From assembly GCA_905178155.1 (NCBI GenBank), contig CAJINV010000005.1:3403716-3467715 (forward strand): a DNA stretch of 64,000 bases, given 5' to 3'. The DNA comes from Amoebophrya sp. A120 (taxonomy: Eukaryota > Protista > Dinoflagellata). Positions 1-64,000 of this stretch are shown here, piece by piece. Every line of letters begins with the position of its first letter. Within the stretch, counting starts at the first letter, position 1. The notes under the pieces are model-generated. The model ran no database searches. It was not told the DNA's origin and was given only the letters and a program-made list of their open reading frames with translations. The translations under genes and the position numbers were made by a program.

Positions 1-2670
1 TGGCTCGCCGGGGTCGGGCGAGTCCTCCACCTGTCGACCACGATCTATATCTGCTACATCTTCTGGCAAAGCCTCTTCGGCGACGGTGCCTGGCGCCGCA
101 GTCATTCCCCCAGTAGTTTGATCCTCCCGCGCTGCGCCGCGGCTGCTTTTCCGGTCGACCGAGCCGACGGTGAGGCCCAGGGACGAGGACTCTTTACTCG
201 GCCCGCGTTTTGGAGAGGAAGTGCCAGCTTCTAGGGTGTTTGGGAGCGAGTCAGCTGCGTCGTTGTTGCTCTCTTGCACGAGGACGATGGCACCCTGTTC
301 AGGTGGTTGAAGTGGCGCACCGCCCATGCTCACGTCGCCGAACCCTTTTTGCGGCGGCTGCGCGTGCGGGTGCGCGGCTTGTGCTGTTGCAGCTGTTTCT
401 ACAAGAACCCTTGATATTGTGTCTCCCCCAGTGCTGTATCCTGATGTCGATGTGTGTCCTCCTTGTCTGGTGCTTCCCGCATCGCCGGATAGGTGTCTTT
501 GCGGATAATATGCTGCCGCGGGGTCGTAGCTGCTGGCACTCCTGCTTGCCCCCTGGCCCGAGAGGAAGTGCTGCGGATTTTGATTCCCTGCAACCACCAG
601 AGTTGGAGTTCCCCTTCCCGCTGCTATCGCTGAAAAAGCTGCTTGATCTTCATCCCCCTGCGCACCGGCACCATTGTAGATGCCGACGTCAACATCGTTC
701 ACCTGTCGACGTGGACCACCAACGATGCTATTGCTGCTTCCACCGAATAAAGTCCCCACTGTTCTTCGTAAACCAAACTCGTCGTACACCGGACCGCTCA
801 TCCACTGTGCCGACGAATTGCTTGCCGCTGAGATCGTTCCGCCATCACCGAAGCCACCGTTCTTTTCGTATCTCCCGAGATACGCCGCCGTACTCGGCGG
901 AAAGAGCACGTTTAAATTCTTCGCGTCAAGAAGTTGTACATTCGAAGCTGCTGCAGCTGCTGCTGCTGGTGCGAGAAGAATCGGCACTGGGGCGATGCTC
1001 ACGCCCGGCGCAACTTCGTCTTCGAGAACGGGAATCAGATTTTGCCTATCGTGATTCGACAACGCGAAAGAGCGGCTGCTATTCGAAGTAGAGCTCGGGA
1101 ACACATAATTACTCCCCCCACCTGGTGACGACGCTGGACCAAGATGTGCAGAAGCTGCTCCGGGACTGAAATGTTGACCAGCGATCGGGGACGATGATGC
1201 TCCTGTAGCTACAGTTCTATTGCTACCCGTCGCGGCTTCTGGCTCATTTATGTTTATCACACTCGCGGAACTGCTGGAGCTGGTCGCTGGCGTACTTTTG
1301 TTCGCGTGACTCTCAAAATACCGTTGCGCAATCGACCCGGCTGCCGACGCACTACTGCTCGCGGGTCCGAGCCCGGCGGGCCGGCGAGAAGACGAAGCTG
1401 TTGACCCAGGAGCACCGAGGAGGTACTTGTTTCTTCCGACGGTAGCGGTACTAATCCCATAATTCCCTGTGCTTGTAATTGAAGCTGAACGTCCATTCTG
1501 GTTCATCCACGACCGGGGAGGGTAAGGCACGGAACTCAGCCCCGGGCCCGGTGCCGGAACAGTACTAGAACTGCTTGTCGTGGGAAAGGGAAAATCATTG
1601 TGGACGAAGGTATAATTCGGTTCTGTTCCTGCCAGTGCTGCATGAGCACTGTCTACTGGGATACTCCCCGTCGTTGCAGATGACGGCAAGGTGCTACTGC
1701 TGGAGGTCGTCGTACTACTATGTCCAACCGGTCGTGGATGCAAGACCGACCGCGCCCCCTGCTCTGGCGAACAGAGTCGTTTCGGCACCGGGGCGTCGTT
1801 TCGAAACAGAAAGCTGCTGAGAAAGGTGTCGGAACTGGGGTTTTGGAAGACCGTGACCTCGCTGTTCGGAAGCGAGGTGGAGCTGTTTACTAAACGTTGT
1901 GTTGTCGGGTGATGCTGAGAAAACTCGAGCTGGTTGTTGTTCTCGTTCCACTGCTGATGGTGCTGAAAAGAAAAAGCCCCTTGCTGTACGAGAGAAGGCG
2001 TCGTCTGCGGCCGGGTGGCGCCCGGGGCTGCTGCGCTCCCCCCGGTTTGACCTTGAAGTAAATCTTCATTGCTAGTACCAACATTTGAAGATGTAGCAGT
2101 TGCACCTCCTGGAGGTGGTGGTACTGAAGTAGCTACCTCCGAGACGTAATTCTCGGTGAGCTGGAAAAACTCGCGAAAACAGCGCTCGGCGTGGAAAACT
2201 TCGGCGGCCGCGAGTTTGCGCAGGTAGGTGTTCAGCACATCGACACAGAACAGTTCGTCGCGCGCCAGGTTTTCAACCGCGATGGAACTTGGGAACTCGG
2301 GGATTTGGGTGAAGGCAGGTTGATGTATATTGGCGGTGGAGGTGGACGTGAGCTGATTGTAATTTTACAAAATTATATGTTCATACTTCGTTTTCGACAC
2401 GATAAAGAACGCTATGCGAAACAACAAGTGGACAGGACGTTGACATGGCCTACTGCGTTCAGAGACGATGGCTCACAACATGAGAAATACACGACAAAAT
2501 TGCCACTTTCTATGTCATCAATTTACTTGGTCGTGCAGCACTTGCAGAGACCGGAGCCGTTTCGAGACGTGGTGCGAAAAACCGTCGTCCTGTTGCTGAA
2601 CCTGAATTTTAAGAAAAACCTCGAGCACCGGCTCCACAATCGTGTCACACTCGATGATGCGAAGCTGCAT
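1..2670 (-). CDS. PX (phox)-like domain protein with a long low-complexity tail; runs off the window start
   Basis: Minus strand reads MQLRIIECDTIVEPVLEVFLKIQV...HVSKRLRSLQVLHDQ, then a GT-AG intron at 2353-2526, then ...IPEFPSS...LNTYLRKL...CFREFFQL, which fits the PX layout. Start codon uncertain. Confidence 0.55.
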
Positions 2671-3523
2671 GTGGCCGACAAAATAAAGTGCGGAGTCGGG
2701 ATGAAATAAACCTTGTAGTACGTGGAATCAATGAAGAGCTCAATTATATATATACATCATTTTCATCTGAAGCTACTTCGTCTTCTGCTACTTTTTTCGA
2801 CGGAGAAACAGAAAGTCACTGCAACATAAAGAAATAGCTGCAGCGACTGCACCAACTCTAGCGGACGCTTCGCGGACGTGCGCGCGCGTGCGACAACTTT
2901 AGCAAAAGCCACTCAAAGTTATGCGCAGCATCAGAACTGTTCTACTCTTCTGCTCCGGCGGGTTCTTTTGGTTTTATACAAGCGTGATGAGCAGGAGCAG
3001 TTCTTTTTGCACTTCGACTTCTTGGTGTTGAAACCTTGGAAATACATACGTCACCACCCATTCTGAACGCAGCTAAGCGACCAAAACAAGGTTGTCGTGA
3101 GTAGAGCAAAGAGTGCCTTTTGGTGTTAAGCTTGCGACGCCACTCTGTGAAATCTTCAATTTTTTGTACACGACGTTCATATCTGAAGTGCTACTGTATG
3201 CGTGTTCTTCATTGGTTTCATTTTCCATCATGTACATGTGCTCAACTTGTTGCTTGGCAACTTGAACTTCGTAAAAAACACTGCACATATATGTTCCACG
3301 ATTCCATTTCTCGTGGTGGTGGCTTCAAAAAAAAGGAAAATGTAGGGCAAAACAAGACTTACAAAAACAGGTTCTTTGTCAGCGTCTCTGAGGACTCTTT
3401 GTCTGATTACTTAAATAATTTCGTCCGCGTTTATCACGGTACGAAGACAAACTTCTACAGCTTCTTTCCTCGAAAATGATTTTTCGAGAAAGCCAACGAC
3501 AACTTTCCGTCCCTCCTCCCGCG

Positions 3524-6500
3524 TCATTTTCCCTCGCAGATTTGGTACGAATACCAAATGAAATCTTCCCCATTGATGCTTTTCGTGACGTCAATTGTGC
3601 ATTGCAAAAGTATGTTCGCACAGCTACCAAGTACGAATTGCATGAATGATAATTTCATAATCTTTCCATCTCAATTCATTCACTCACTCACGCAAGCTAT
3701 TATCCTTCTTGAAGAGTTCTTTCATCGGTTTCCCATCGTTCTCTCTCGGATGTGCTTACAAGTGTATCGCTTTGCTAAGAATCTTCGCACGCATCAGCGC
3801 GCGGCGTAGGTCCCGTCACTCATCTTTTGGAACCAGATGCCGCACACTCGGTATTCTGTCCGCCCCGAATTCTCACAGAAATCTTCGGCGTCGATTTGGA
3901 ACGTCACGGGATCGGGATCGGCGTCGCTTTTTTCGGTTTGCCAGGCGCTGCCTGTGGTGTTGGGAACTCTTTCCCAGCGCCTGCCGCTGATATTCGCTAC
4001 GAATTCCGCTTGTTTTTGCTCGGCCTCCTCCTTTTGTTTCCGGATGTTTTCGTTTTGTCGCGCGGTCCTTGCCTTGCACGCCTTGGTCTTTCCCCTCCTG
4101 TCGGCCTTTTGCTGTTTCGGTAGCGGCTTCGTGGGCCTCTTTGCTACGAGGTGCGCCTTCACCACGTGGGCCGCTGGCTGTGGCTTTAAGTCCATGAACC
4201 CGTCGACCGGAAGGCCTATGGCGTCGAAGTCCTCTTTTACCATTCTGCCCCAGGGGGTGTTTTTTCGGATCTCTTGCTTCGTCAGGTGGTGGCATGCTTC
4301 GTTGGGGTTGCGAAAGGTGTGCGCCGCCCACGCTACCCGCCTCTCCCGCAAGATGGTCTCTATCGGCGGCACGCCCGTCCTGTTGCAGAGGTCGAGCCGG
4401 CTTGCGTACTCTTCTGCTCCTTCCGCTTCCTCTTGTGCGTACTGCCATGCGCGTTTTTCCCCTTCCACCGTTTTCAGGGTGCTGTGCTGGAACCACCGCA
4501 AAGCCTTGAGGTCGTGTTCCCGTGGGTGCCAGGTTTCCGCGTTGTATAAAGCGACGGAGTTGGCAAGGCTTTGGTATAGAGTCGCTTTCATCCTCCTGGA
4601 GATGTCTCGGTCTCTCCAGATGCCCTTCAGTGCCTGGACCGTGGAACGCGCCATGCCGGTGCGCCTCGCGATCTCCTTCGTTGTCGCCGCGTTGTTTTCT
4701 ACTTGCGTGCCCAGGTATTTGAACAAGCTGACGGTCTTGATTTCTTCCCCGCTGTAGGTGGTTAGGTTTGCTGGGACGAGCTGCCGCGCGCGCTCTGCTT
4801 TCTGTTTCTCCAGTATCTGTCGCCCTACCCGGAGTTGTCGCTCTTCCTCTTCTGTCTTCGCTGGTCGGCAGAAGCCCGTCGCTTTGTGGTAGGTCAGTGC
4901 TTTTTGGTCGCTCAGGATGTCGCCGCATCTGTCGCAGACAAATGCGTTCTTCTCTTGCTTCACGAACCGAATGCGGCCCATGCGTATGAGCCTTGCCGGC
5001 GTTTCGGCCCATCGCCACCGCACTGTTGCCCACCCGCTTTTCTTCAGGATGCAGCAGTTGAAGGACCCATCATCCCACGCAAGTAGGTGCGTGGGCTTCA
5101 ACCCCATGTCCATCCGTGGCGCCTTTTTCGCTCCCTGTTTCAGCTCTGGGCGCAGGTCCGCCCCACTCCACTCGACCATCCACCCGCTGCGCTCTGTGCC
5201 GCCAAGTTCCTGGAACTTGAATCGCTCTTCTCGTGCTTCTTCGTTCGTTTTTTCGGCCGGCTGCAGGTTGAACGTCATGGCCTCGGTCTTTCCATCTCAA
5301 GGGAAGATGGGATCTATGTCTGTCATGCTCATGTAGCCCGCGGAAAAACTACATCAGATCTCCTGTCACGCCCGAACGCAATTTCATGTTTGTACAAGTG
5401 CGATACAACTTTAGCGAAGGATATCACTGAGACCGTCGCAATTCGGCCCGTCCGGCGCTCCAGGGGCGTTTAGGTCCAACGGATTTTCTGTGATGTTCCC
5501 GTTGACCGCCCCCGCCGCTTTCACGTAGCACCACTTTTTCGTGCACCAGTCTGGACGGTCCTGTGGGTCCGCGCACCGGTAATTCGCACCGGCTTTGCCG
5601 TTTTTTCCGTCAGATGCCGTCTATCCTCTGCAAAGGCAATATCGTACCTCCTTGTAGTATATTGTTCATCGAATTTTTAGTGCAGTTATTTACATACATA
5701 GTATCTGCATCTTTGCGAACTTGAATCAACATAATTAATACAAATCTCACTCTTCAATTTCATCTTGCCAAAATTTCTTGTCATGCGCTCTCTACTAATA
5801 CGATACTTTTGCACTGCATACCACCGTCTCTGTGTCTTCCCAGGCCGCGCATATCCTGAGCAAAAACGCCTCCTCCCCAGAGCTGTCACGCAAATCTGCA
5901 TGCCTGAAATGCTTATCATGCACAGCCACGGCACGAGAGGCATTCTTTCATTTCTAACGCAATCCGGGAGCCCCAGCCTGTAATGTTAGAATCAGGATAA
6001 GCATATCGATTTCTCATCATGCGGATGCGCTAGGTAATAAACAGCAGTACGCTATCATGCGCAACAGCCAAAAGCGGTGGAAGTGTGAAGCAACGTCCTC
6101 ATCTTGACTCGGGGGTGGGGAAGTTTTTGGACGGGATAACGCAGAACTCTCCGTAATTCGGACCGCCGCCGTACTTCAGCGTGTAGGCCTTTCCGTAGTC
6201 CGTGTCGTCTTTTTGTGGTGTGTATCGCGAGAAAAAACTGTTTCAACACTGGAAAGTTGTGATGCAGAGGACGCAACTACTACACCGAAGTGCTTGTCTT
6301 GCTGCACATGCAAGACAATGCATTTATTTCAGGCGTGTTTCCCCGAGAAACAGAAAGCTCGCGTGGCAAATTTTTTTTTGTGCTGGTGTGATGCAAAGTA
6401 GCGCGCAAGATTCTTACAGTTGTGACGCAGTTTTTTCGTGCGATAGTGTAAGCCACTCTTGGGCAGGAAACTGCAGGTCACAGGAAGCCAAGTTGTATCC

Positions 6501-9001
6501 CGTCCACGTTGTGTCAGTGCCTGTGCCACATCCGTCTCGCATCAAATAGCACTTGCGTTTGCCGCTAGCGTCTGCATTGTTTTCCAAGAAGAAGGATTTG
6601 CATTCGTCCGTTTTCGAGCACAAGTACCGGCATTCGCTCAGCGTGTAGGCACGGTTATTGTAGGTGCTGATCACGATGGGATTCGTACCTCCCAGAAGCG
6701 ACGTGAAAGCGCCACCAGGCTGGCACTGACCGCCGTATCCGACTATCAAGTGCAAATATCAGGTCTGGGTGGTGTGGAAAATTGCAAAACCTGAGCAGGT
6801 GCTTCTTGTTTAACACGGCTATAGCGCGTCTGGTGTATCATGTTGCGGAAGAACAGTGAATGCCTACTGAATTAAGTGGAGTACGTATCTCATGCGCAAT
6901 ACGCAACACAGCCCTGGTTCCCCAAAAGATTTTCATGCTTGGAGGCCTATTGTTTCTTTGTCACCCGCGAGTCAGCATGGCAACTTTCCAGGCCATAGAT
7001 ACAGACATATTTGCAAAAAGGCATATCGACGGCGCAGTTACTGTCGTCGACCTGCGGCACATCTGTTGCCTCTATACAACTTGCCGTGTTTTGCTCCAAG
7101 CTATACATCATCTGCGTCGATTGGAGGTATCCAGGCGACTCGAGCGGACACAAATTGGACGGAAAATGGTGGACATTCCGAAACAAAAGCAGCGGACTTC
7201 GTCCGTCATTCATCCATGAGAAAGATGCTGAATTCTGATGGAGCTGGGATTCTCATACAGCCATGTCTTGTGGTGCTTTGTGCTCCTGCTGCGCCTGCAC
7301 ACAAAACCGTAATCGAAAGAGCACCGAGCACGGCCCCACCACAGGCAAATAGAGTGGCAGATTTGGCCGCAACTGGGTGTTGCGGAAACCATGGCCGGGC
7401 CGCGCCAGGAAAAGCCAACAGCGGCGCGAAGACTTTGGCGCGCCAGGGCAGCGGGCTGGCACGCGCGCGCCGCCCCCGTGTCGTGCGGCGGGCGGCGAGC
7501 AAAAAAATTGTGTCCGACCTTTGGCGCGCATTGTGTCCGGTTTTTGGCGAATTGTGTCCCAAGGCAAGTGTGTCCGAGCAAAAAGCACACTGAAAATATG
7601 CACGGCATCTTTTACCTGGCGTGCGGCCGGGGCGCCGCCCACTGGGGTGGTCCGGCTGGAAAGGTTGCTGCTGGCAGTCGGAGACGCCACAGGCGCCGCC
7701 ACTTCCGTGGGCTTTCTCACACAAATGAAAGAATGGGAGGCGCTTCGCAGATTGGCACCACACCCAGGCGGCAGGGCGCGGACTGCCGCGTGGCATGTCC
7801 TCCCTTCAGGTGAATTGCTTTCTTTCCGTCGGTTCTCAGCCATCGGCCCCACTGCTTCTCTTCGCCCTCTACTATTCACAGAAGCTGAAAGCGCAACTAA
7901 CGCAGTCCTATGGCAGCTCGAGTGCTTCTGCATTGTGGCAATGCGATGAGGAAGCTGACAAAAAAAAAACATTCTCAGCGCTCAGGCGAAGGTGCTAGAG
8001 ATTCGGAAAAAGATGAATTTTGATTGTAATTGTGCACGTTTTTCTGCCCCGTTTTGTGTCCGCTATACGGCCTGGCGCCATCCATACGATTTCAACATTC
8101 CCATTCGTGTCGTCCAAGTACACCCGATTCGGACAGACGGCAGTGTAAAATTGGCACGTCCCACTTCTGTATGGATTGCAAATACAATGTCAGGTGTCTG
8201 ATACGGGCAGGATGCAACTTGACGTCATCCTAAGTCTGCTGACGTAGACAAAAATCCGCCGGCCTTGCTCAGTCGAAAGACACTCTGGGGTTCTTGCCTC
8301 TCACAGCTGTGGCATCTCTCATGCAGGCTACACATTGAGAGGCCTCCACGGGCACGGATCTTGTCATGACATGCTCATACTCTGAGCATGAATTCCACAA
8401 CTTCTTTCTTGCAGGTCGAAAAATTATACAAATTTCTGCATTAGCATTCTTCCTGACCCAGACATAATCGAACTCTATTTGCACTTGATACTGTGTCGGA
8501 CTGGTAGGCTTTGCACATGCCGTTAGATTCCGTACGGCACTGCAGGTCACAGCGCCGCCAGAAGAAATTTTTAGAGGCGTCGAAATAATATTCCAATTGT
8601 GGGTTGACGTTGACCTTGAAGACTTCGTCTCCTGTCAGTCCACCAGACCCATTATACTGAGAATTGCACTTGCCGCTGAACTCCTTCGCGCAGATGGGGT
8701 CTGTGAAAGTACTAGTACCGCCGGCAGCCGACAGCGACAGATCGGTCCAGGTAGGTAGGATCGGAGCAGCGTCATCCATCGAATTAACACATGTGCACGT
8801 GTCCGCCTTCTTGCTGGCTTTGGTCTGGAGGTGATTTCGATTTGTGAATGCAGCTCCTCCATCTGTGTGGGCCTGGGTCTTTTGCTGCGCTGCACCTCGT
8901 CGCAGCACCTTCACGGCTTGCACCGCCGGGCACCTAGACACGACCTGGAGGGCCGCAAGAAGACGACCGGCAAAGGAGTAACGACGCACCTGCGCGCCCA
9001 T
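3524..9001 (-). CDS. Secreted Cys-rich protein with PAN/apple-like modules and a C-terminal WCYV Cys domain; multi-exon
   Basis: Signal-like N-terminus. Modules CDLQC...CKAYQ...CQFY and CRYLC...CKSFF...CYLM. Spliced C-terminus reads YGEFC(V/A)AWED...C...PDWCTKKWCYV...C...D..KS...WYSYQICEGK*. Six introner junctions give in-frame joins; the junction across about 7250-8070 is unresolved. Confidence 0.7.
3675..5286 (-). mobile_element. 5'-truncated non-LTR retrotransposon (RTE-like LINE) nested in an intron
   Basis: Flanked by a 14-bp direct repeat TCTTTCCATCTCAA (3661-3674 and 5287-5300). The 3' tail is a short tandem GAGTGAGTGAATGAA. The ORF carries RT C-terminal motifs. Confidence 0.85.
3794..5278 (-). 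CDS. C-terminal part of a LINE reverse-transcriptase ORF with a zinc finger
   Basis: (K)TEAM motif at the 5' edge; FKYLG...EIARRTGMA...LKGIWRDRDIS..MKATLY...LYNAETW is typical of the RTE-clade thumb region; C-x2-C-x12-H-x5-C. No YADD core, because it is truncated. Confidence 0.8.
   Translation of the reverse strand: MTFNLQPAEKTNEEAREERFKFQELGGTERSGWMVEWSGADLRPELKQGAKKAPRMDMGLKPTHLLAWDDGSFNCCILKKSGWATVRWRWAETPARLIRMGRIRFVKQEKNAFVCDRCGDILSDQKALTYHKATGFCRPAKTEEEERQLRVGRQILEKQKAERARQLVPANLTTYSGEEIKTVSLFKYLGTQVENNAATTKEIARRTGMARSTVQALKGIWRDRDISRRMKATLYQSLANSVALYNAETWHPREHDLKALRWFQHSTLKTVEGEKRAWQYAQEEAEGAEEYASRLDLCNRTGVPPIETILRERRVAWAAHTFRNPNEACHHLTKQEIRKNTPWGRMVKEDFDAIGLPVDGFMDLKPQPAAHVVKAHLVAKRPTKPLPKQQKADRRGKTKACKARTARQNENIRKQKEEAEQKQAEFVANISGRRWERVPNTTGSAWQTEKSDADPDPVTFQIDAEDFCENSGRTEYRVCGIWFQKMSDGTYAAR
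5622..5820. mobile_element. Introner family B
   Basis: TATCCTCTGCAAAGG...GATACTTTTGCACTGCATA; flanks CCGTC/CCACC; in-frame join ETVASDGK. Confidence 0.75.
5852..6138. mobile_element. Introner family C
   Basis: TATCCTGAGCAAAAACGCCTCCTCCCC...GGGGTGGGGAAGTTTTTGGACGGGATA; flanks GCGCA/ACGCA; join YGEFC(V/A)AWED. Confidence 0.75.
6223..6445. mobile_element. Introner, family D-like
   Basis: TATCGCGAGAAAAAACTG...CAGTTTTTTCGTGCGATA; flanks GTGTG/GTGTA; join EWLTPQKDD. Confidence 0.75.
6744..7025. mobile_element. Introner family A (degenerate)
   Basis: TATCAAGTGCAAATATCAGGTCTGGG...CAGACATATTTGCAAAAAGGCATA; flanks CCGAC/TCGAC; join NCAV(E/G)YGGQC. Confidence 0.75.
7300..8000. other. GC-rich non-coding island inside the secreted-protein gene
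   Basis: Abrupt rise in GC, TGTGTCC repeated four times at about 7508-7577, no recognisable protein. Boundaries approximate. Confidence 0.4.
8170..8490. mobile_element. Introner family A (degenerate)
   Basis: TATGGATTGCAAATAC...CCTGACCCAGACATA...TTTGCACTTGATA. The direct repeat has decayed, but removal plus 5 nt gives CKAYQSDTGGTCQFY. Confidence 0.65.
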
Positions 9002-9631
9002 GATCCTTTTTTCACCCCACTACAATCAACATCGCGGACATTTTGAGGTTTATTCCAGCCTCGTGCATCTGAGTTGCAGCAGAGCCAAGAGGAGGATAGC
9101 AGAAGGGCAACAATGCATAACAACTTCTGGACTCCAAGCAGCTCGGGAAAGATCTGCAAGTCCGATAGAGGCAACAGATTTCTAAAATTCTTTATCGTCC
9201 GACGCCTCCGCGTCACACTCTCAATTTTCTCATAGTTGTGGCACTCGTGGTCAGCAGTTCATTTCTTCCAAACATTTGACTCTGCTCAGAATTGATGAAT
9301 GGTCACTCGCAACACAAGTGCGCTCATTTTCTTTTGCTGACAGACAAGATCTTTAAGAAACATCACGAAAGCCAGACCTACACCTACTGGGAGGTGGGTG
9401 TGGGAGTGAGTGTGGAACTACCTCCCCCTACATTCAATAATTTAAATTTTAGTCGCACAAAAGTTCTCGTTGCAATCCTGCGAAAGGGATCATGAACGTG
9501 ATATTATCATGGAAATAACTGCAATGGCGAAGAGGATTCCGACTCGAGGCCCGGAGCACTAAAACATTACGAGCAAGTTGTTCTTCAATATCTTTGATCT
9601 TTCTGCTTGTGGGCCAGGGCCACGTGACTGA

Positions 9632-12600
9632 TCAATAAGGCATGAATCCAGGTGGCGGATGAGGTGCCGGGCCCCCACTTCCGCCGGGAAACATGTTGTA
9701 GCCATACGGCAACGGCGCACCTGTTGACGAGTACTGCTGGTATTGTTGATTCTCATTCTGATTTATTGCCCCCGCCCGCGGCGCACTGTGTACTACTAGG
9801 TTCGTCCCCTGCTGATAGTGCTGGGGATGATTCGCGTGGTTCGCGTATTGCGGTGTCGTTTGTGTCTGAAAGTCCGGGGTATCGAAGCGGTTGAAGGTCG
9901 CGTTGTTGTGCGCCGGCGCCGTTGTTGTCCCAGCAGGCCCCAGCCCGACGTGAAAGGGGTTTACATTCGTGTTGCTCGCACTGTTGCTGTAAAGCATGTT
10001 TGACGTCGTACTTGCCCCCCCGGCCACCCCCGGCGGCCCTGCACTCGAGGACGACGAACCACCGCCAGGAGCTTGATATTGAAATTGTTGCTGTTGCTGT
10101 TGTGGTTGTCCGCCTGCTGCTCCTCCGCTTCCTGTTGGGACAAAAGAACTCGCAGCACCCGGATTGGCGTTCCACAAGGGTCCGCTGTTCAGCCGTGCGT
10201 TTTGTTCCTCGTGCGCCTCCCTTCTCTTCTCCAGCTCCTTCTCCCGTGCCTCCTCCTCCTTCGCCTTTTTTGCCTCCCGCTTCTTCGCAATCGCCCTTTG
10301 CACGTACGCGTCGTGTTCGCACGCCCTGAATTCCTTGTCCCACTTTTCCTTCATCTTGTGGTAGTGCTCCTGCCCGATGTTTTTGTGCAGCCAGGTCTTC
10401 ACGTAGGCCCCGGGAAGTTCGATGTTCTTCCGTCCCATGTACTCCAGGATCCGCAGACCGACCGGCTTCAATAGCCTCGACATTTCGGACTCGTCGCTGT
10501 CGTACTCGTCGTCCTTTTTCTTCGCGAAGGCCGCACTGCTCGCGCCGGAGCGCTTCCCCCCGCGGCCCTTGCCCTTCTGCGTTATTTGTTCCCGGTCTTT
10601 TTCCTCATGTCTGCGCTGGTTGATTTTGTCCTGCAGTTTTGATTGATCTGTGCCTTTCGGGTCCTGCTTCCGGTGCATGTTTTTTTCCTTCAAAAAGGCG
10701 ATGTATTTCTCCTCTTCCGCGGGCTTGGTAAGTTGCAACGCCTCCCACAGCGGATTTACCAACACCAGTCCCGTTTCTTGCTCCCGCCTCTTCTGGTGCT
10801 TTGTTTTGAACTCTTCCGACCGGTAGCTGGAGATCAAAGCCTGCGTCTCCCCCGTGCTTGTTTCCCCGAAAATAGCTTCTTGCTCGAAAAGCTCGTACGC
10901 CCGGTCGAAGAACCACTGCAGGGTTGGGTGCGTGCGGAGGAGCTCGTGGCACTTCGCGCCGCGCTATCAAGTGTAAAAGTGTCTGGGTCTGGAAGGATGT
11001 GAACTTGTGATGCGCATTTCATAACACAGACAAATCTCTCATGCATCTTTGCAAAAGGTGCCCATATGTTGTCCCCAAAATGGGGGATTTGTCATGCGGA
11101 TTAAGCAATGCGGAAGCTTCTCGAAATCTGTGATGCTAGGGCTTCCATGACAGACATTTTGTGTCATGCAAAAACAGCATGACAAAAATCTGCATTCTTC
11201 CAGACCCAGACATCTTTACATTTGATACGCGCACGCCGTGGGGAAACTTCTCCACCGGCTTCGCGAATTCCTCCTTCAGGTTGTCTCTCGTCACGCACTG
11301 CTTGTAGTAGTTTTTCAGAATCTCCAAAATTTCGTCGTCCGGAATCAAATCCTGCCGGCAATCCACCCATTTCATAAACTCGCCGTCGGGCTTCAAAGGC
11401 TTGATCGCGTGCAGATGCGCTGTGTGCGGGTGGGGTAACGCCTGGGCCTTCACCTCCCGAGAGGCAATGGCGCTCTGCTCTTTCTTCTCGTGCTGTTTTC
11501 GCACGATCTCGGAGAACGTGTCTTGATTTGGCTGCTCGGGGGACGAGCTCGCGCCGGTAGAATTTTTCGGGTTCCTCGCTTGTTGTTGATTTTGATGGCT
11601 TACTGTTCCGGTTGGTACTTGATTAGGATTTTTTGGATTTCCCCTGTCTTTGCTGTTATTTTTCCCTTGATGTTCCTCTTGAGCAGCTGCACGCATCTCC
11701 CTTCGCCTTGCTCTCTTCTGCGCCTTTGTAAGACGCTTTCCCTTCATCTGGCTTGCGTTCATTTCGGCAAGATTATCCACTTGCTGTTGCTTCGTTCCCC
11801 CACCATTAGTTGTACTTTGTGCAGCTGCCTCACCTGAAGATGCTCCGCTCCCGAACGCGTTGTAGATACCCGCGCCGTGAGGTCGTTGTACTTGCTGTTG
11901 CTGCTTGTTTTGTTCTTGCCCGCCCCCCCGAGCAGTAGTAGATGATGTTGCACCAGGTCGTTTATTCATGCGTTTTTTATTTCCATCTCGAGCAAGGTGT
12001 GCAACGGCGTCGTCGTCACTATCATCCTCGTCCCCGAGCAATGCAACTTGGTCGGCCAGTTCGAATTGGTTCTTTCCTAGGTTCGCATCCATTTCGTCCT
12101 CCGACGAATTCGAATTATTGCTGTCATCATCTTGACCATCTTGCTCCCCGTCGCCATCAGCAGCTCTCCTTATCGCAGCCGCGTCCGTCCAACTCTTCCC
12201 CATTGCAGCTAGTGTCTCTCCCTCTTTCCTAAAAGCGGCACTGCTACCAGCACCACGACCACTCTTCTTCTTGATACTATCTCCCTCGAACAACGATCCC
12301 TGCCCCGCTTTGAAAGAGGAGCCGAGAGCTCTCTCTTCTTCCAATAGTTCGTTTTTCATCTGCTCTCTTTCCCGGAACCAGTCGGATTTTTCCTGCTTCC
12401 CCCGTCTTTCCCTTTTCAGCTGCAGCAACGTCTGCTCTTCCATGGTGGAGATTCCCTGTTTGCACTGGATCATCATCGTGTCTAGGTCATCCGTCCGCCC
12501 AATGCCCATGCCCACGTAATCCAGCTCATTCGGGTACTTCGCCTTGTACTCCTGCAAGTCTTCCAGTACTTGCGCCCGTACCCGCGCCGCGCCCTCGTGC

Positions 12601-18068: not shown

Positions 18069-19579
18069 TTAGGCACTCGCTTTCTTCATAGCCATATTTT
18101 TTCTCTTCTTCAGTAGTGGCATGCTTTCCTTCTCAGCCGACTTTTTTCCGCCTTTTCTTCCAGCTGCCTTCTTTTCCATCTCTGCTGCAATGGTCTCCTT
18201 CTCCTCATCACTTGACTCCGCCGCTGTTGTGGCTGACGTTCTTGTTCTCTTGTTGCTCTTCTCACCAGCAGTTCCGCTCTTCGCGAATTCCTTTCCGACG
18301 ACCACAAACTCGTCCTCCTTCAATTCCCTTTCGTAAACCGGAAGGGAAATGCAGTCCGTCGCGGAAACGCAGGCGGACTTGACAGAAAGGTTAAACTTCT
18401 TCAAGTATGGTTGAGCCGCCTTGATCACCTGTCGTGTTTTGCATTTTTTTTTGATACAATTACAACGCGTAGATAAATTCCAGGAGAAGAAGTAGCACCA
18501 TCGGAGATCAATTGAGCACTACGTATGGTGTGCATAGGAATCGGGCGATCAAGATCATAGTCAAACAAGAAACAAACATCAATACCGCATTGCAATTCTC
18601 CGCTAGTTCTTCCGCCTTCATGTTACACCTTCCAATCTTTATTGCCATGTCCGGCCCGTTGGGAATGTTCAAAGTCGTGCAATTAAGCGCCTCCTTAATT
18701 CCCCCAACCGGGTCCTTCTTTTCGATCACCACCGGCCACGGCTTTTTGTTCGCGTGCTTGTAGAATGTTTTGCCGAGCTCTCTCGGCATGATCTCAATAA
18801 TCGACTTGTCGCAGAGGAAGAGGTCGTAGCTGCGCGCCAGCTCGCGCTTGTCCTGGAACTGCTTGAATTCCTTCTTCAACTTATCGACAGAAATCACTTT
18901 CTTCACCTGGGATTTTTGAGTGGGTTTTGTGTGCATGATGGGACGAGCACATGAATTGGTGTAACTGGAAAAGTACAGCTACAGGATGCGCTTTTCGATG
19001 TCTTGCTCTTTTCATGCGTGTCGTAGCAATACAAGAGGAACTACCATACCTTGTGATGCAAAACAAATATAAGGAAGAACAAACAATAAACAAATACCGC
19101 CTCGACGTTCTCTTCTTTGATCATGTTCTTCCACAATTTTCGCTTTTTTTCGTGAAATTTCTTCTCCCGATCTTCCAAGTCGTCCCGCACGAAAACGCAA
19201 ACATCGGAGGATGTATAGCTGTTTTGATAATTTCAAAAGTTTTGCGAAATTTATCATGCGATGAACTGTACGAAACAAAACATGGCTCTGGCAAATGTAA
19301 CGCTACTCAGTACAACATCATACAAATTCACGGTATCAGTATGGGGTCATCAAAATCTGTCATGCAAAATCAAAAGGCAAATTACAATGGGTGCGGCAGC
19401 GTGATCCTTTGTGGTTTGTGCACCGCCTTGGCTGGTATTTCCGTCAGGGAGAATTTCAGCAAAGCCGTCTCGGTATTCTCGTCGAAGAGCTGGTTTTTAT
19501 TCTGCTCTTGATTCCTCTGCTTCACAAACTCCAACAGGCCCTTGCAGGCGCCAGTGACAACCGCCTGGTCGACTTTCAT
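18069..19579 (-). CDS. RSL1D1: Ribosomal L1 domain-containing protein (RSL1D1/Utp30-like)
   Basis: KPQRITLPHP, DVCVFVRD, KVISVDKLKKEFKQFQDKRELARSYDLFLCD, LGKTFY, IKIG, SLPVY, and a lysine-rich tail. Confidence 0.85.
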
Positions 19580-20489
19580 TTTTAGATATTAGCCTAGAAA
19601 AAAAGGAAGTGAGGAATTAAATTTGCAGTGAAAGTAGGCGAAGACGAAATTGTCGTGATGTCGTGTGGGAAATCAAGGAAAGCGTGAAAACGAGTTCTGC
19701 ATTAGACTTGGGATATTAGAGACTCGATCTCTGAAGTAATGCACACTGTTAGCGTATCAGAAAGTGCACTAAAAAGTACTAGAACTCGATGAATAGTCTG
19801 TGCCTGGTAGAAAGATGCAGATTTATGTGCGATCACAGTTCTTGTTGCTACAGAAATATGACCACTTAGAAGACGACAGAAGCAGCATTTATCTTGCAGC
19901 TCTCGTCGCGAGTCGAGCGAGCACAGGTGATCCCAAAACTTACTTTCTTGTTGAACCATTCTATGGACCATGCAATCGGTGTTGTCATCGTGAGCTTCGT
20001 GATCCTGATCTCGTGTAAAACATTCTTGTGATCCTTTTTTCGTCGGTGGCAGTACGTGCTTCACGATCCTCGGGAAAATCCTGGCATTTCCTATAAGGGA
20101 TTGATCTTCCGAACTCGAGGCTTAGTAAGTCAGATCTTTGCAGATCTTCTTCTTCATGATAATCCGACATTTTATTCATGATCGTTTTTTCTTGCTGATA
20201 TCTACCTTCTTCACTTAGCAAAGATTCCTGCGAAATCAGCGGTCTATGTGACAGGTTACCGCCCACCGCCTGCGGGGGCTGTTGTAACTACGTAACTACT
20301 TTTTGTGGTACGACGTGGAGGTCCAGCCCATCGCGTGGTGGTGAATGAAACTTATTCGCCTCGTTTGCCCCTTGCCAGTGCGGTAACGAAAGCAAATGCA
20401 AATACTTACATGATGACAAGAGATGGTTTTATTTACTTCTTCTCCGATTTTCAAGATGATTGAATTTGAAGGTGAAACAACTGTACTAT

Positions 20490-22202
20490 TCAGAGGTCAT
20501 CATGCGAGTTACTACTCGTTCTGCGCTGCCCCTGCTTCTTTACATTTTCGCAAATTTCCTGAAATTCGATTGCCTCCTCTACATACTCCTTCAGCAAAAC
20601 TAACTGCTTCTTCCTCGACGACACTCCGGGGAGCATTGCCGTCTCAATCGTGGCGCTCTTATTTTTACTCTTATCAGCATCTTCACTTTTCCTATCATTT
20701 TCCTGTCGGCTTTGCGTGATGATCACTTTCCCGGGCGGAAACGTGTTTCGCAAAATCTCCTTCTCCTCGTGAAATGACTCAGGTAAGAGCATCGTTGATC
20801 CCTTCCGGTCCGGATGGATGGAGACGAGGAAGAAGAAGTAGAAAGTCGGGCTTTTCGGATCCAGTTTCTCTATATTTTTCTTCGCGCTTTCCATACTCTT
20901 CGCCAACTGTGCCGTCCCCTCGTCGTGCAAGATTTTCTGCAGCGTCGCGGTATCCAGAAATTCCGCGACTCCGATGTGCACGTTGCAACTCCCCGCAGTG
21001 AAGAGCTTCGCGTCTTTTTCGAGGAGTTTGTCAAAGGAGAGAGCGGCTAATTCTGCGTCTTTCGCGGTTGCCATTTCTAGCCACATTTTGTTCTGGTTGT
21101 TCGGGGAAAGGCTCAGGAAGGCGTTGATAACACTCACCGTCTTCCGGTCGACATCCGTTGTGGTAGGAGAGGTCAAGTTCACCGTGTCAGAAAGAATAGC
21201 GTAAAGAATCAAGCGGAGAATGGTTTTCGGGATGAGGCTTAGCAGGTCCTTTGTGCGCTCCTTCTGCATGATGATGTTTTCATCTTCACCGACCTGGTGC
21301 TGCTGCTGCGCTACTGATGGCGAGGACGCAGCGGCTGCACTATCGGAGTTCTCTTCTGCTGGATTTGTCTTCGCAGCTGCTCCAGCTGCAACAGCACCAG
21401 CAGCCTCCTGTTCCTTCTTTAAAACCGCTTCTAAGTACGTCGTGTTCATTTTCTGAAAAAGCAACGTCGCCGTGGAGCCCACTTGCATGTACTCGACCAT
21501 GTTGGATGCAATTGCTGCGCTGCTGTCGATTTTGTGGTGGTCAAAAATTGCAACGACGTCGGCCAGTCCCTGCTGCACTGCCACCGGTCGCTGCTTCTCC
21601 TCATTATGGTCTACCAGGACGACGCAGGGTTTCGTTCTGGGTTTAGTTCCCTCAGCTGTACGTTTTGCCACTTCGTCCGAAATGGCAGCAGGCGCGGCCG
21701 TGATGAACGCCAGTGCCAGTGGTTCAGCTCCGGTTGATCCACTTACTATTTTTCCCGCGTCGGTTGCGTTTGCCTGCTTCGAAGCTGCGTGCGCGTCTGC
21801 CAAAACCAGCTGAACGTCTTTGCCCAAGTCTTTTTCCGATGCCGGTAACGTCGCTACACCATTGTACATCCAGGCTGCGACCACAGCGGACGCGACCGTG
21901 TCCACGTCCGGTGCTTGGTGGCCGACAAAGAAACAGCCGGTGAGGGATTTGTTTTTTTCCTTTTCCCGTGCGGCGCGAAGCTCCGTCTGGAGCTGGTTTA
22001 GTTGGGTGGCACGGGCCGGTGTTGTACTAGCGGAGATTGAGGATGTGCTGCAAAGTAGATGAAGTGTCGTGACGAGCAATGCAGTCGTGTTACGCTGCAG
22101 TTTTGCGAGAGTTGGGGAAGGTGTCGTGCCAGCAATCATTGCCCTACCCGCCTCGGAAGCAGGCGGTAGACGACGACCTCTGGGTGGGAGATGCTGATCC
22201 AT
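20490..22202 (-). CDS. DHH-family Mn-dependent inorganic pyrophosphatase (family II, PpaC-like), intronless
   Basis: GHQAPDVDT, VLVDHNE, DHH, VGSTAT, AILSDT..LTSPTTT, GVSSRKKQ. Confidence 0.85.
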   Translation of the reverse strand: MDQHLPPRGRRLPPASEAGRAMIAGTTPSPTLAKLQRNTTALLVTTLHLLCSTSSISASTTPARATQLNQLQTELRAAREKEKNKSLTGCFFVGHQAPDVDTVASAVVAAWMYNGVATLPASEKDLGKDVQLVLADAHAASKQANATDAGKIVSGSTGAEPLALAFITAAPAAISDEVAKRTAEGTKPRTKPCVVLVDHNEEKQRPVAVQQGLADVVAIFDHHKIDSSAAIASNMVEYMQVGSTATLLFQKMNTTYLEAVLKKEQEAAGAVAAGAAAKTNPAEENSDSAAAASSPSVAQQQHQVGEDENIIMQKERTKDLLSLIPKTILRLILYAILSDTVNLTSPTTTDVDRKTVSVINAFLSLSPNNQNKMWLEMATAKDAELAALSFDKLLEKDAKLFTAGSCNVHIGVAEFLDTATLQKILHDEGTAQLAKSMESAKKNIEKLDPKSPTFYFFFLVSIHPDRKGSTMLLPESFHEEKEILRNTFPPGKVIITQSRQENDRKSEDADKSKNKSATIETAMLPGVSSRKKQLVLLKEYVEEAIEFQEICENVKKQGQRRTSSNSHDDL

Positions 22203-54755: not shown

Positions 54756-54917
54756 CTACCTCGCGGCCAACGTAGTCCAGTAAAACAAAAAGACGGCACT
54801 TATCACTCTTAGCCGTTCTCATTTAGCCTGTATATATTGTCGTAGCACCGCAAAAAACATCAAGACAGGGGTCCATCACGATGAGCATCAAACTCGTTGA
54901 TTTATCTCAGGATTAGC

Positions 54918-55634
54918 TATCGCCGTGGAAAAACGCCGGCGCGATGCAGTGCAATACTGCAGTCACAGAGGCAAACGTAGCTTGTTTTTTTTTATATCTA
55001 CATGGTAGTTTAGAGGTCGTGACCGCAACACGTTGAAATCATCACGCAGCAATTATTTCCGCACGACTTTCTGTTCAGTCCCCATGGTCATCAATAGGCG
55101 ACAACTGTGAGTAGTCACGAAAATGGTGGGGCTCCACTTGCTCCGCTTGCTCCGGTGCGTATCGCCGTGAAGAAACGCCGGCGCGATGCAGTGCAATACC
55201 GCAGTTACAGAGGAGGCAAACGCAGCTTGTTTTTTTTTTCTACATGGTAGATTAGAGGTCATGACCGCAACGCGTTGAAATTATCACGCAGCAAGTAGTT
55301 CCGCACGACTTTCTTATTCTTGTTGACTGAAAAGAAAGTTTCTTTTCAGTCCCCATGGTCATTAATAGGCGACAACTGTGAGTAGTCACGAAAATGGTGG
55401 GGCTCCACTTGCTCCGCTTGCTCCGGTGCGTATCGCCGTGAAGAAACGCCGGCGCGATGCAGTGCAATACCGCAGTTACAGAGGAGGCAAACGCAGCTTG
55501 TTTTTTTTTTCTACATGGTAGATTAGAGGTCATGACCGCAACGCGTTGAAATTATCACGCAGCAAGTAGTTCCGCACGACTTTCTTATTCTTGTTAGTCC
55601 CCATGGTCATTAATAGGCGACAACTGTTACTAGT
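54918..55634. repeat. Tandem triplication (242/271-bp units) of the last exon and 3' flank of the neighbouring gene
   Basis: TATCGCCGTG..AAACGCCGGCGCGATGCAGTGCAATAC recurs at 54918, 55160 and 55431; the units encode EQVEPHHFRDYSQLSPI(N/D)DHGD*. Confidence 0.9.
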
Positions 55635-63590: not shown

Positions 63591-63782
63591 CTGAAAGTTT
63601 GTGTTTTTTTCACTCCATGAAGTTGAAGATATTTGATTATCTGTGACAGCGCATCACGACATGATCAAGACGCATGCTCGTGTCAAAAGTAGTCCTTGTC
63701 GTCCACACGAGAATCAATATGGAGTTGCAGGTAGCTATCTAAGTACTTATCTATCAAGTTAAGCCATGGCCAGGGCGTAAAA

Positions 63783-64000
63783 AACCGAGAATCGCAAACC
63801 GAGAATCGGAAACCGAGAACCGAGAATCGGAAACCGAGAGCCGAGAATTGGAAACCGAGAACCGAGAACCTGAAACCGAGAATCGGAAACCGAGAACCGA
63901 GAATCGGAAACCGAGAACCGAGAATTGGAAACCGAGAACCGAGAACCTGAAACCGAGAATCGGAAACCGAGAATCGGAAACCGAGAATCGGAAACCGGAA
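63783..64000. repeat. 7-bp-unit satellite (AACCGAG / AATCGGA variants) running off the window
   Basis: Continuous heptamer array; rare variants AATTGGA and AACCTGA recur 77 bp apart. Confidence 0.92.

Follow-up and report, generated by a model that had tools for sequence, protein, structure and literature searches.

A LINE nested in an introner of an expressed gene of Amoebophrya sp. A120, and the probable removal of the composite intron as a unit

Can a non-canonical intron still be removed once a retroelement has split its middle and enlarged it ninefold? The question is raised by a locus within a stretch of 64,000 nucleotides of Amoebophrya sp. A120 (the window; position 1 is its first letter), where the last intron of a gene on the minus strand is a TIR element (introner) that contains a 5'-truncated LINE. 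A preliminary description of the locus had left two outcomes, that the insertion is tolerated by the splicing system or that the allele is disrupted. The exact joint found in a transcript contig favours the first, and we infer the allele from which that transcript came. The LINE lies in mid-introner, in the final intron of a gene that is expressed, and the 1833-nt composite is probably removed whole through recognition of its ends. The anatomy, the exact contig joint and the open frame across it are direct observations. The features are as follows, where lines without a strand concern features to which none was assigned.

3202-3590, minus strand: last exon of the host gene, with about 21 codons that include YSY..C, a stop at 3524-3526 and then the 3' UTR (X3 piece, 0 differing letters)
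3591-3595: copy of the 5-nt direct repeat that leaves with the intron; the other copy, at 5424-5428, has one mismatch
3596-5423: introner of TIR family B, 202 bp after in-silico removal of the LINE and one repeat copy
3596-3660: left part of the introner, with a TIR at 3596-3613 (16-nt exact match to three family members; profile positions 3-40)
3661-3674: LINE target-site duplication, 3'-side copy, in the central hairpin region of the family-B profile
3675-5286, minus strand: 5'-truncated LINE copy, 1612 bp between the two 14-mer copies, inside the introner 3596-5423
3675-3690, minus strand: microsatellite tail of the LINE, (TGAG)2(TGAA)2 as read on that strand
3691-3793, minus strand: LINE 3' UTR, about 100 nt, containing at 3701-3708 an exact 8-nt complement of the first 8 nt of the intron
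3794-5290, minus strand: intact 3' third of the LINE ORF, with the end of the RT palm/thumb and the C-terminal region, lacking active site and endonuclease
5287-5300: LINE target-site duplication, 5'-side copy, of which 5287-5290 also fit the LINE frame
5301-5423: right part of the introner, with a degenerate TIR ending at 5423 (family profile and alignment)
5424-5616, minus strand: exon 7, which encodes the WC..KWCYV portion of the cysteine domain (X3 piece, 0 differing letters; match to L001)
5617-5820, minus strand: intron 6, 204 nt, a spliced family-B introner (5622-5820 plus repeat; X3 joint and profile)
5821-5847, 6140-6217, 6446-6739, 7027-7123 and 8088-8165, minus strand: exons 6 to 2 (joints of X3 record 2)
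Within 5821-8491, minus strand: five TIR introns without GT-AG ends, of 292, 228, 287, 964 and 326 nt (X3 joints)
8492-9138, minus strand: exon 1, with the first ATG at 9001 (piece of X3 record 2, 0 differing letters)

The transcript consists of a single contig of run X3 (record 2; 1805 nt, depth 138), which spans 3202 to 9138 with seven joints. X3 is taken to be RNA because it skips seven introns and has almost no depth within them. The joint 3590->5424 skips 1833 nt, with 3 ambiguous letters and 193 letters on its shorter side, and reproduces base for base the 3590/5424 junction predicted earlier from the removal of 1.83 kb plus 5 nt. A depth of 138 over the eight exons reproduces the depths of the exon bins within rounding. 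For the six other joints of the record the listing leaves the letters between the pieces unspecified, but when the exons are joined using all seven joints the product is 1803 nt long, with 453 stop-free codons and 447 amino acids from the first ATG. If the last intron is retained, the frame stops three codons in and the YSY..C motif is lost. The possibility that transcripts leave out 3524-3595, also raised at the outset, is answered by the contig, which includes 3202-3590. Among the joints (12 of 12) and pieces (8 of 160) listed for X3, the host gene has no other ending, and none of these pieces bridges the junction between LINE and introner. This evidence is one contig of one run; rare forms are lost in contigs, which carry no measure of splicing efficiency. 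Mapping of runs X3, X8, X9 and X10 covered 1-12000 of the window; the raw-read runs X8, X9 and X10 gave 91, 0 and 0 reads there, all at an introner end near 11.2 kb, with the gene uncovered.

The last intron can be placed in four registers (TA..GA, AT..TG, GA..TT and TG..AT), none of them GT-AG. A GT-AG register is absent from all seven introns of the host gene, and all have ends of the TAT..ATA type. All seven are TIR elements, from several families, and are removed in the one contig, in which the shortest exon has 27 nt. The 964-nt intron (7124-8087) has a GC-rich interior, and nothing else in the window repeats it significantly. Next to the host gene, the downstream gene has a 174-nt intron at 2353-2526 (CT..AC on the plus strand, GT-AG on the minus strand) that is skipped in X3 record 1, so that canonical and non-canonical introns stand side by side.

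Joining exon 7 to the last exon completes a cysteine domain, as proposed before the transcript was known: the YSY..C motif that the last exon supplies also ends the same domain in the unrelated L001. This metagenome contig of another organism encodes, at 902-1657 (+), two tandem repeats of the domain with the pattern C..W..C..PDWC..WCYV..YSY..C, both ending in YSY..C. The C terminus of the host protein has the same series of motifs with longer inserts, and blastp between the two covers only the WCYV part (E 3e-6). In the window, YSY..C occurs only once (six frames, 127,996 translated positions). A metagenome scan with the host exon gave one relative, L001, among 377 candidates, and no empty allele among them. 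Protein searches found no match for exon 1 among 1759 candidates or for exon 7 among 26, and exon 7, exon 1 and L001 had no Pfam match. Exon 4 has weak PAN/MANEC matches near or below the Pfam cut-off, and as a guess the product could be an extracellular adhesion-type protein. Atlas matches of the host protein (0.82-0.89) are unnamed and serve as leads only; those of L001 (0.79-0.89) are unnamed diatom and ciliate clusters. The label 'Kringle-like' for the cysteine domain, a likeness without Pfam support, was not adopted.

The host introner belongs to a common type. Short TIR elements flanked by direct repeats of 5 nt abound in the window. Their ends consist of TAT, seven variable bases and a run of A, and eight other full-length members of family B are present. 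A family profile was built from seven other elements of the window, and a member outside the profile scores 72.7 bits against it. The LINE-free element, whose expected length of 202 bp was confirmed in silico, scores 25.0 bits and covers positions 3-150 of 150, collinear across the insertion site, whereas the separated halves score 8.8 and 7.7 bits. The insertion site is the central hairpin region of the family. Both TIRs described earlier are present, at 3596 and 5423, in degenerate form (11/16 matching; 5 mismatches compared with 0-5 in the other candidates listed). Likewise the 5-nt direct repeat does flank the element, with one mismatch (TCAAT/TCACT, 4/5 matching), and the splice joint slides by 3 nt. 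Together with an identity of 49-54% between the LINE-free element and its relatives in the alignment, these mismatches mark the introner as old and diverged.

Several other features of the window were recorded. A family-A introner at 10960-11227 is skipped in X3 (joint 10959->11228), and about 90 RNA reads of X8 match just the final 31 nt and have different flanks, so this introner end is shared with a related strain or species. In one X3 contig, 10102 is followed after 6 letters by the earlier position 951, which may reflect a repeat common to two genes. A TIR-like pair at 19498-21222 (1725 bp, perfect 5-nt direct repeat) was rejected as a likely chance match; it overlaps coding-looking DNA. 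Tandem arrays lie at 54826-55634 and 63748-64000, with units of about 250-270 nt and 14/21 nt.

The LINE copy is bounded by a 14-mer at 3661 and 5287 that is identical at 14 of 14 positions; both copies are on the plus strand, and the 64-kb window has no other. The rough chance of such a match is about 2e-5 (40x40-nt grid around both element ends). The 14-bp duplication, the TGAG/TGAA tail and the placement between family-B TIRs had all been noted from the letters and are confirmed, as are the element ends and the shared orientation of LINE and host gene, both on the minus strand. The 14-mer is not internal LINE sequence, a possibility entertained earlier. At the 5' end of the LINE it reads stop-Asp-Gly, whereas the frame of three relatives stays open there, and no more than the four final bases of the 14-mer agree with the conserved K-T-E of these relatives. 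Moreover, X3 contains a second LINE copy whose end is at 3675, the base adjoining the repeat (from_end column). The overlap of about 4 nt between repeat and LINE frame is likely microhomology. Because the two copies of the duplication are identical and the ORF is intact, the insertion is taken to be young.

A stop-to-stop frame of 500 codons (3794-5296, minus strand) is 40-43% identical to P0001-P0003, the three matches among 6047 candidates in a protein search; with P0001 the identity is 43% across 99% of the frame length. Two of these three relatives are proteins of Amoebophrya sp. AT5.2. P0001, a 1376-aa AT5.2 protein, combines an endonuclease (Exo_endo_phos) with RVT_1; among solved structures, L1 ORF2p and R2 are its best relatives. 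The alignment begins at P0001 residue 847 and the catalytic xDD lies at 811. Because the copy thus starts 36 residues past this motif, it lacks the active site and Pfam RVT_1 gives no match to it at E<=1. The '1.6-kb RT fragment' first reported therefore holds as a LINE piece (3675-5286) and not as an RT domain. With neither endonuclease nor RT active site, the copy is not autonomous and cannot move itself. By tblastn the window has one copy of the family. Two copies in X3 have their differences listed: one is about 2% from the window copy (over 317 nt, 6 changes plus an insertion of 4 nt) and the second about 6% (47 in 746). From the 40 of 55 differences listed, 25/33 and 3/4 changed codons are synonymous, an excess such as would be expected of copies of recently active LINE lineages.

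The clade of this LINE is less clear than its anatomy. It resembles RTE elements in its microsatellite tail, target-site duplication of <20 bp and 5' truncation, and its relatives resemble them in having endonuclease and RT in one long ORF. It differs from them by about 170 extra residues with CxxC..H, placed between the KTE and FKYLG motifs, and by the missing match to DUF6451. These residues (4760-5280, minus strand) follow the end of the RT palm and are common to P0001-P0003; to our knowledge, RTE elements lack such an insert. A DUF6451 after the RT is associated with RTE. In Pfam, DUF6451 has no match in the LINE fragment at E<=1, nor in P0001-P0003 at E<=0.1. According to the relevant passages of two papers, a microsatellite-like 3' tail is an RTE feature (PMC13295347) and the presence of both domains in one ORF is true of most clades (PMC2790886). 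The earlier term 'RTE-like' is thus sustained by architecture and tail and by nothing further, and on these two grounds RTE membership is suggested.

Whether the composite intron itself was spliced depends on the allele behind the transcript. Over the zero-difference pieces of four X3 records (8 of 160 pieces listed), 6,035 of 6,035 exon and UTR bases are identical to the window, so the genotype behind the RNA is that of the window or almost identical to it. The X3 transcript very probably derives from the LINE-filled allele. It is unlikely that an empty allele with a 207-nt intron was instead present in the RNA sample and gave rise to the transcript, the filled allele being recent and poorly spliced or null. 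The DNA runs that best cover the locus come from samples and studies other than that of X3, and the identical duplication copies and intact ORF of a young insertion would agree with such a history. However, no difference was seen in the 6,035 bases listed, and the expressed LINE copies listed are 2-6% from the window copy, farther than the host alleles are from each other; an insertion after the alleles split would thus need a near-identical source outside those listed. Depths of 1.3 and 1.6 are left over in the bins 4801-5200 and 5201-5600; they would fit an unspliced piece of the filled allele and, equally well, a short piece of another LINE copy.

Folding bears on the same choice. In a global fold of the filled intron, the 30 nt at one end are expected to form 0.6 pairs with the 30 nt at the other; the figure is 14.4 in the empty form and 11.6-20.4 in 12 of 12 other introns, including the 964-nt one. 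Ends predicted to pair in the empty form and not in the filled one, together with a decoy in the LINE 3' UTR, would favour transcription from an empty allele. The end duplex of the LINE-bearing introner is -20.5 kcal/mol, and 13 introns range from -15.9 to -37.4. In the minimum-energy fold of the filled intron the 5' end pairs with 3701-3775 and not with its native end; a fold constrained to the native stem is 1.6 kcal/mol less stable, out of a total of about 583, and shuffled-insert controls keep the stem in 6 of 8 cases. This gap lies within the error of a 1.8-kb fold, and the predicted structure neither supports nor excludes an end hairpin. The 8-nt complement at 3701-3708, noticed post hoc, has a chance of about 1 in 40 per 8-mer in 1.6 kb.

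The pairing of the 5' end with 3701-3775 also speaks for removal of the filled intron in at least two steps, either at cryptic sites in the LINE or with the decoy at 3701-3708 used first. This appears quite improbable, as the decoy has no matching direct repeat, no intermediate joint ending at 5424 or 3590 is found among the X3 joints listed, and the 964-nt intron of the same kind, whose ends are predicted to pair, is also skipped in X3 record 2. Were removal stepwise, length tolerance by end pairing would not be demonstrated. Relatives of the LINE do exist elsewhere, but its placement here by repeat mis-assembly is scarcely credible, given an exact 14-bp duplication at both ends, an excision that restores a collinear family member, and the fact that runs X1 and X2, which may be the source of the window, contain fractions of 0.96 and 0.94 of the words sampled from 3000-7500.

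Removal of the filled intron in one piece is therefore the preferred reading, and a sequence of events can be proposed for it. A family-B TIR element would have inserted in an exon with duplication of 5 nt and become an intron; as the intron equals the element plus one repeat copy, the mRNA would have been unchanged. The introner would then have diverged. Later, a LINE would have entered its central hairpin by target-primed reverse transcription, duplicating 14 bp, with synthesis stopping about 1.6 kb from the 3' end and the junction formed through about 4 nt of microhomology. The whole 1833-nt composite would now leave in one piece, presumably in a single step. It is likely that the non-canonical machinery reads the two ends of the introner and not its length or interior, and recognition of these ends by pairing or by a bound protein would fit equally. 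The statement that 'only the ends matter' is in this sense a fair inference. The related statement that introners are 'safe havens' for retroelements rests on one case; they may be. A wider proposition is conceivable, although we would lean against it as a whole: that ends alone are recognized over kilobases despite degenerate TIRs and a decoy, that introners shelter retroelements in exons genome-wide, that nested cases form a mutant series, and that some 'retro-derived introners' are TIR introners with a nested LINE or LTR element.

The insertion of a TE into an intron is ordinary in itself; it is the host intron that is unusual. Gozashti et al. 2022 (PMC9860276), in the portion drawn on here, treat secondary TE insertion in an existing intron as a common false positive, which they filtered. 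The present case is similar in that a retroelement lies inside an intron and leaves with it, and differs in that the host intron is a TIR element spliced without GT-AG. For such introns the closest comparison is Farhat et al. 2021 (PMC7789003). According to the sections of that paper considered here, GT-AG ends are absent from >60% of the introns of two Amoebophrya strains, a search for U1 was negative, and an end-joining hairpin was the proposed splicing mechanism. The introner elements described there share with this one the non-GT-AG ends and membership of a repeated family. They have inverted repeats of 8-20 nt and a boundary direct repeat of 3-5 nt, both present here with the TIR degenerate, and the A120 type of inverted repeat (TAT, seven variable bases, run of A) is common to that paper and to the window elements. 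The differences are the nested LINE, the degenerate ends and the length of 1833 nt. Non-canonical introns of A120 average 240 nt, and the analyses were confined to introns of 40-1000 bp, a range that this one exceeds; the longest intron given, 35,152 bp, is of unstated type. A literature search, within journals open without subscription, found no description of a LINE nested in an Amoebophrya introner.

The rows covered here from Dataset S2 of Gozashti et al. 2025 (PMC12130899) include A120 TIR families with lengths of 811 bp and about 1190 bp. In the same source fam6 (773 copies, 234 bp) is matched to LINE/RTE-BovB, with one DUF6451 match and 7165 in the TE_end column, the best TE-peptide match of fam16 is LINE/I-Jockey, and fam122 has a 6806-bp LTR call. 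A120 TIR families with LINE peptide matches resemble the introner with LINE described here, and nesting is not described in the rows and section covered. The resemblance suggests to us that the LINE and LTR matches of these families are nested insertions and that nesting is not rare. In the rows considered, however, several copies of family 38 are nearly identical, and one nesting event would not account for them. Some caution is warranted, as LINE/LTR homology within Amoebophrya introner families can stem from nesting.

Exact removal of an introner that is enlarged ninefold, has its central hairpin split and carries both weak ends and a decoy points to an interior and a length that are likely dispensable. 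The locus is thus a natural test of the Amoebophrya splicing mechanism, and a place to trap the excised intron or its intermediates. Outside this lineage, the nonconventional introns of euglenids and diplonemids (PMC11282704, PMC12621601, in the parts drawn on here) are similar in their TIR-paired ends and TSD-like repeats. In euglenids they reach several thousand nucleotides (PMC11282704), and in diplonemids they pair their ends (PMC12621601). These lineages are unrelated to Amoebophrya, and the likeness drawn here is one of features.
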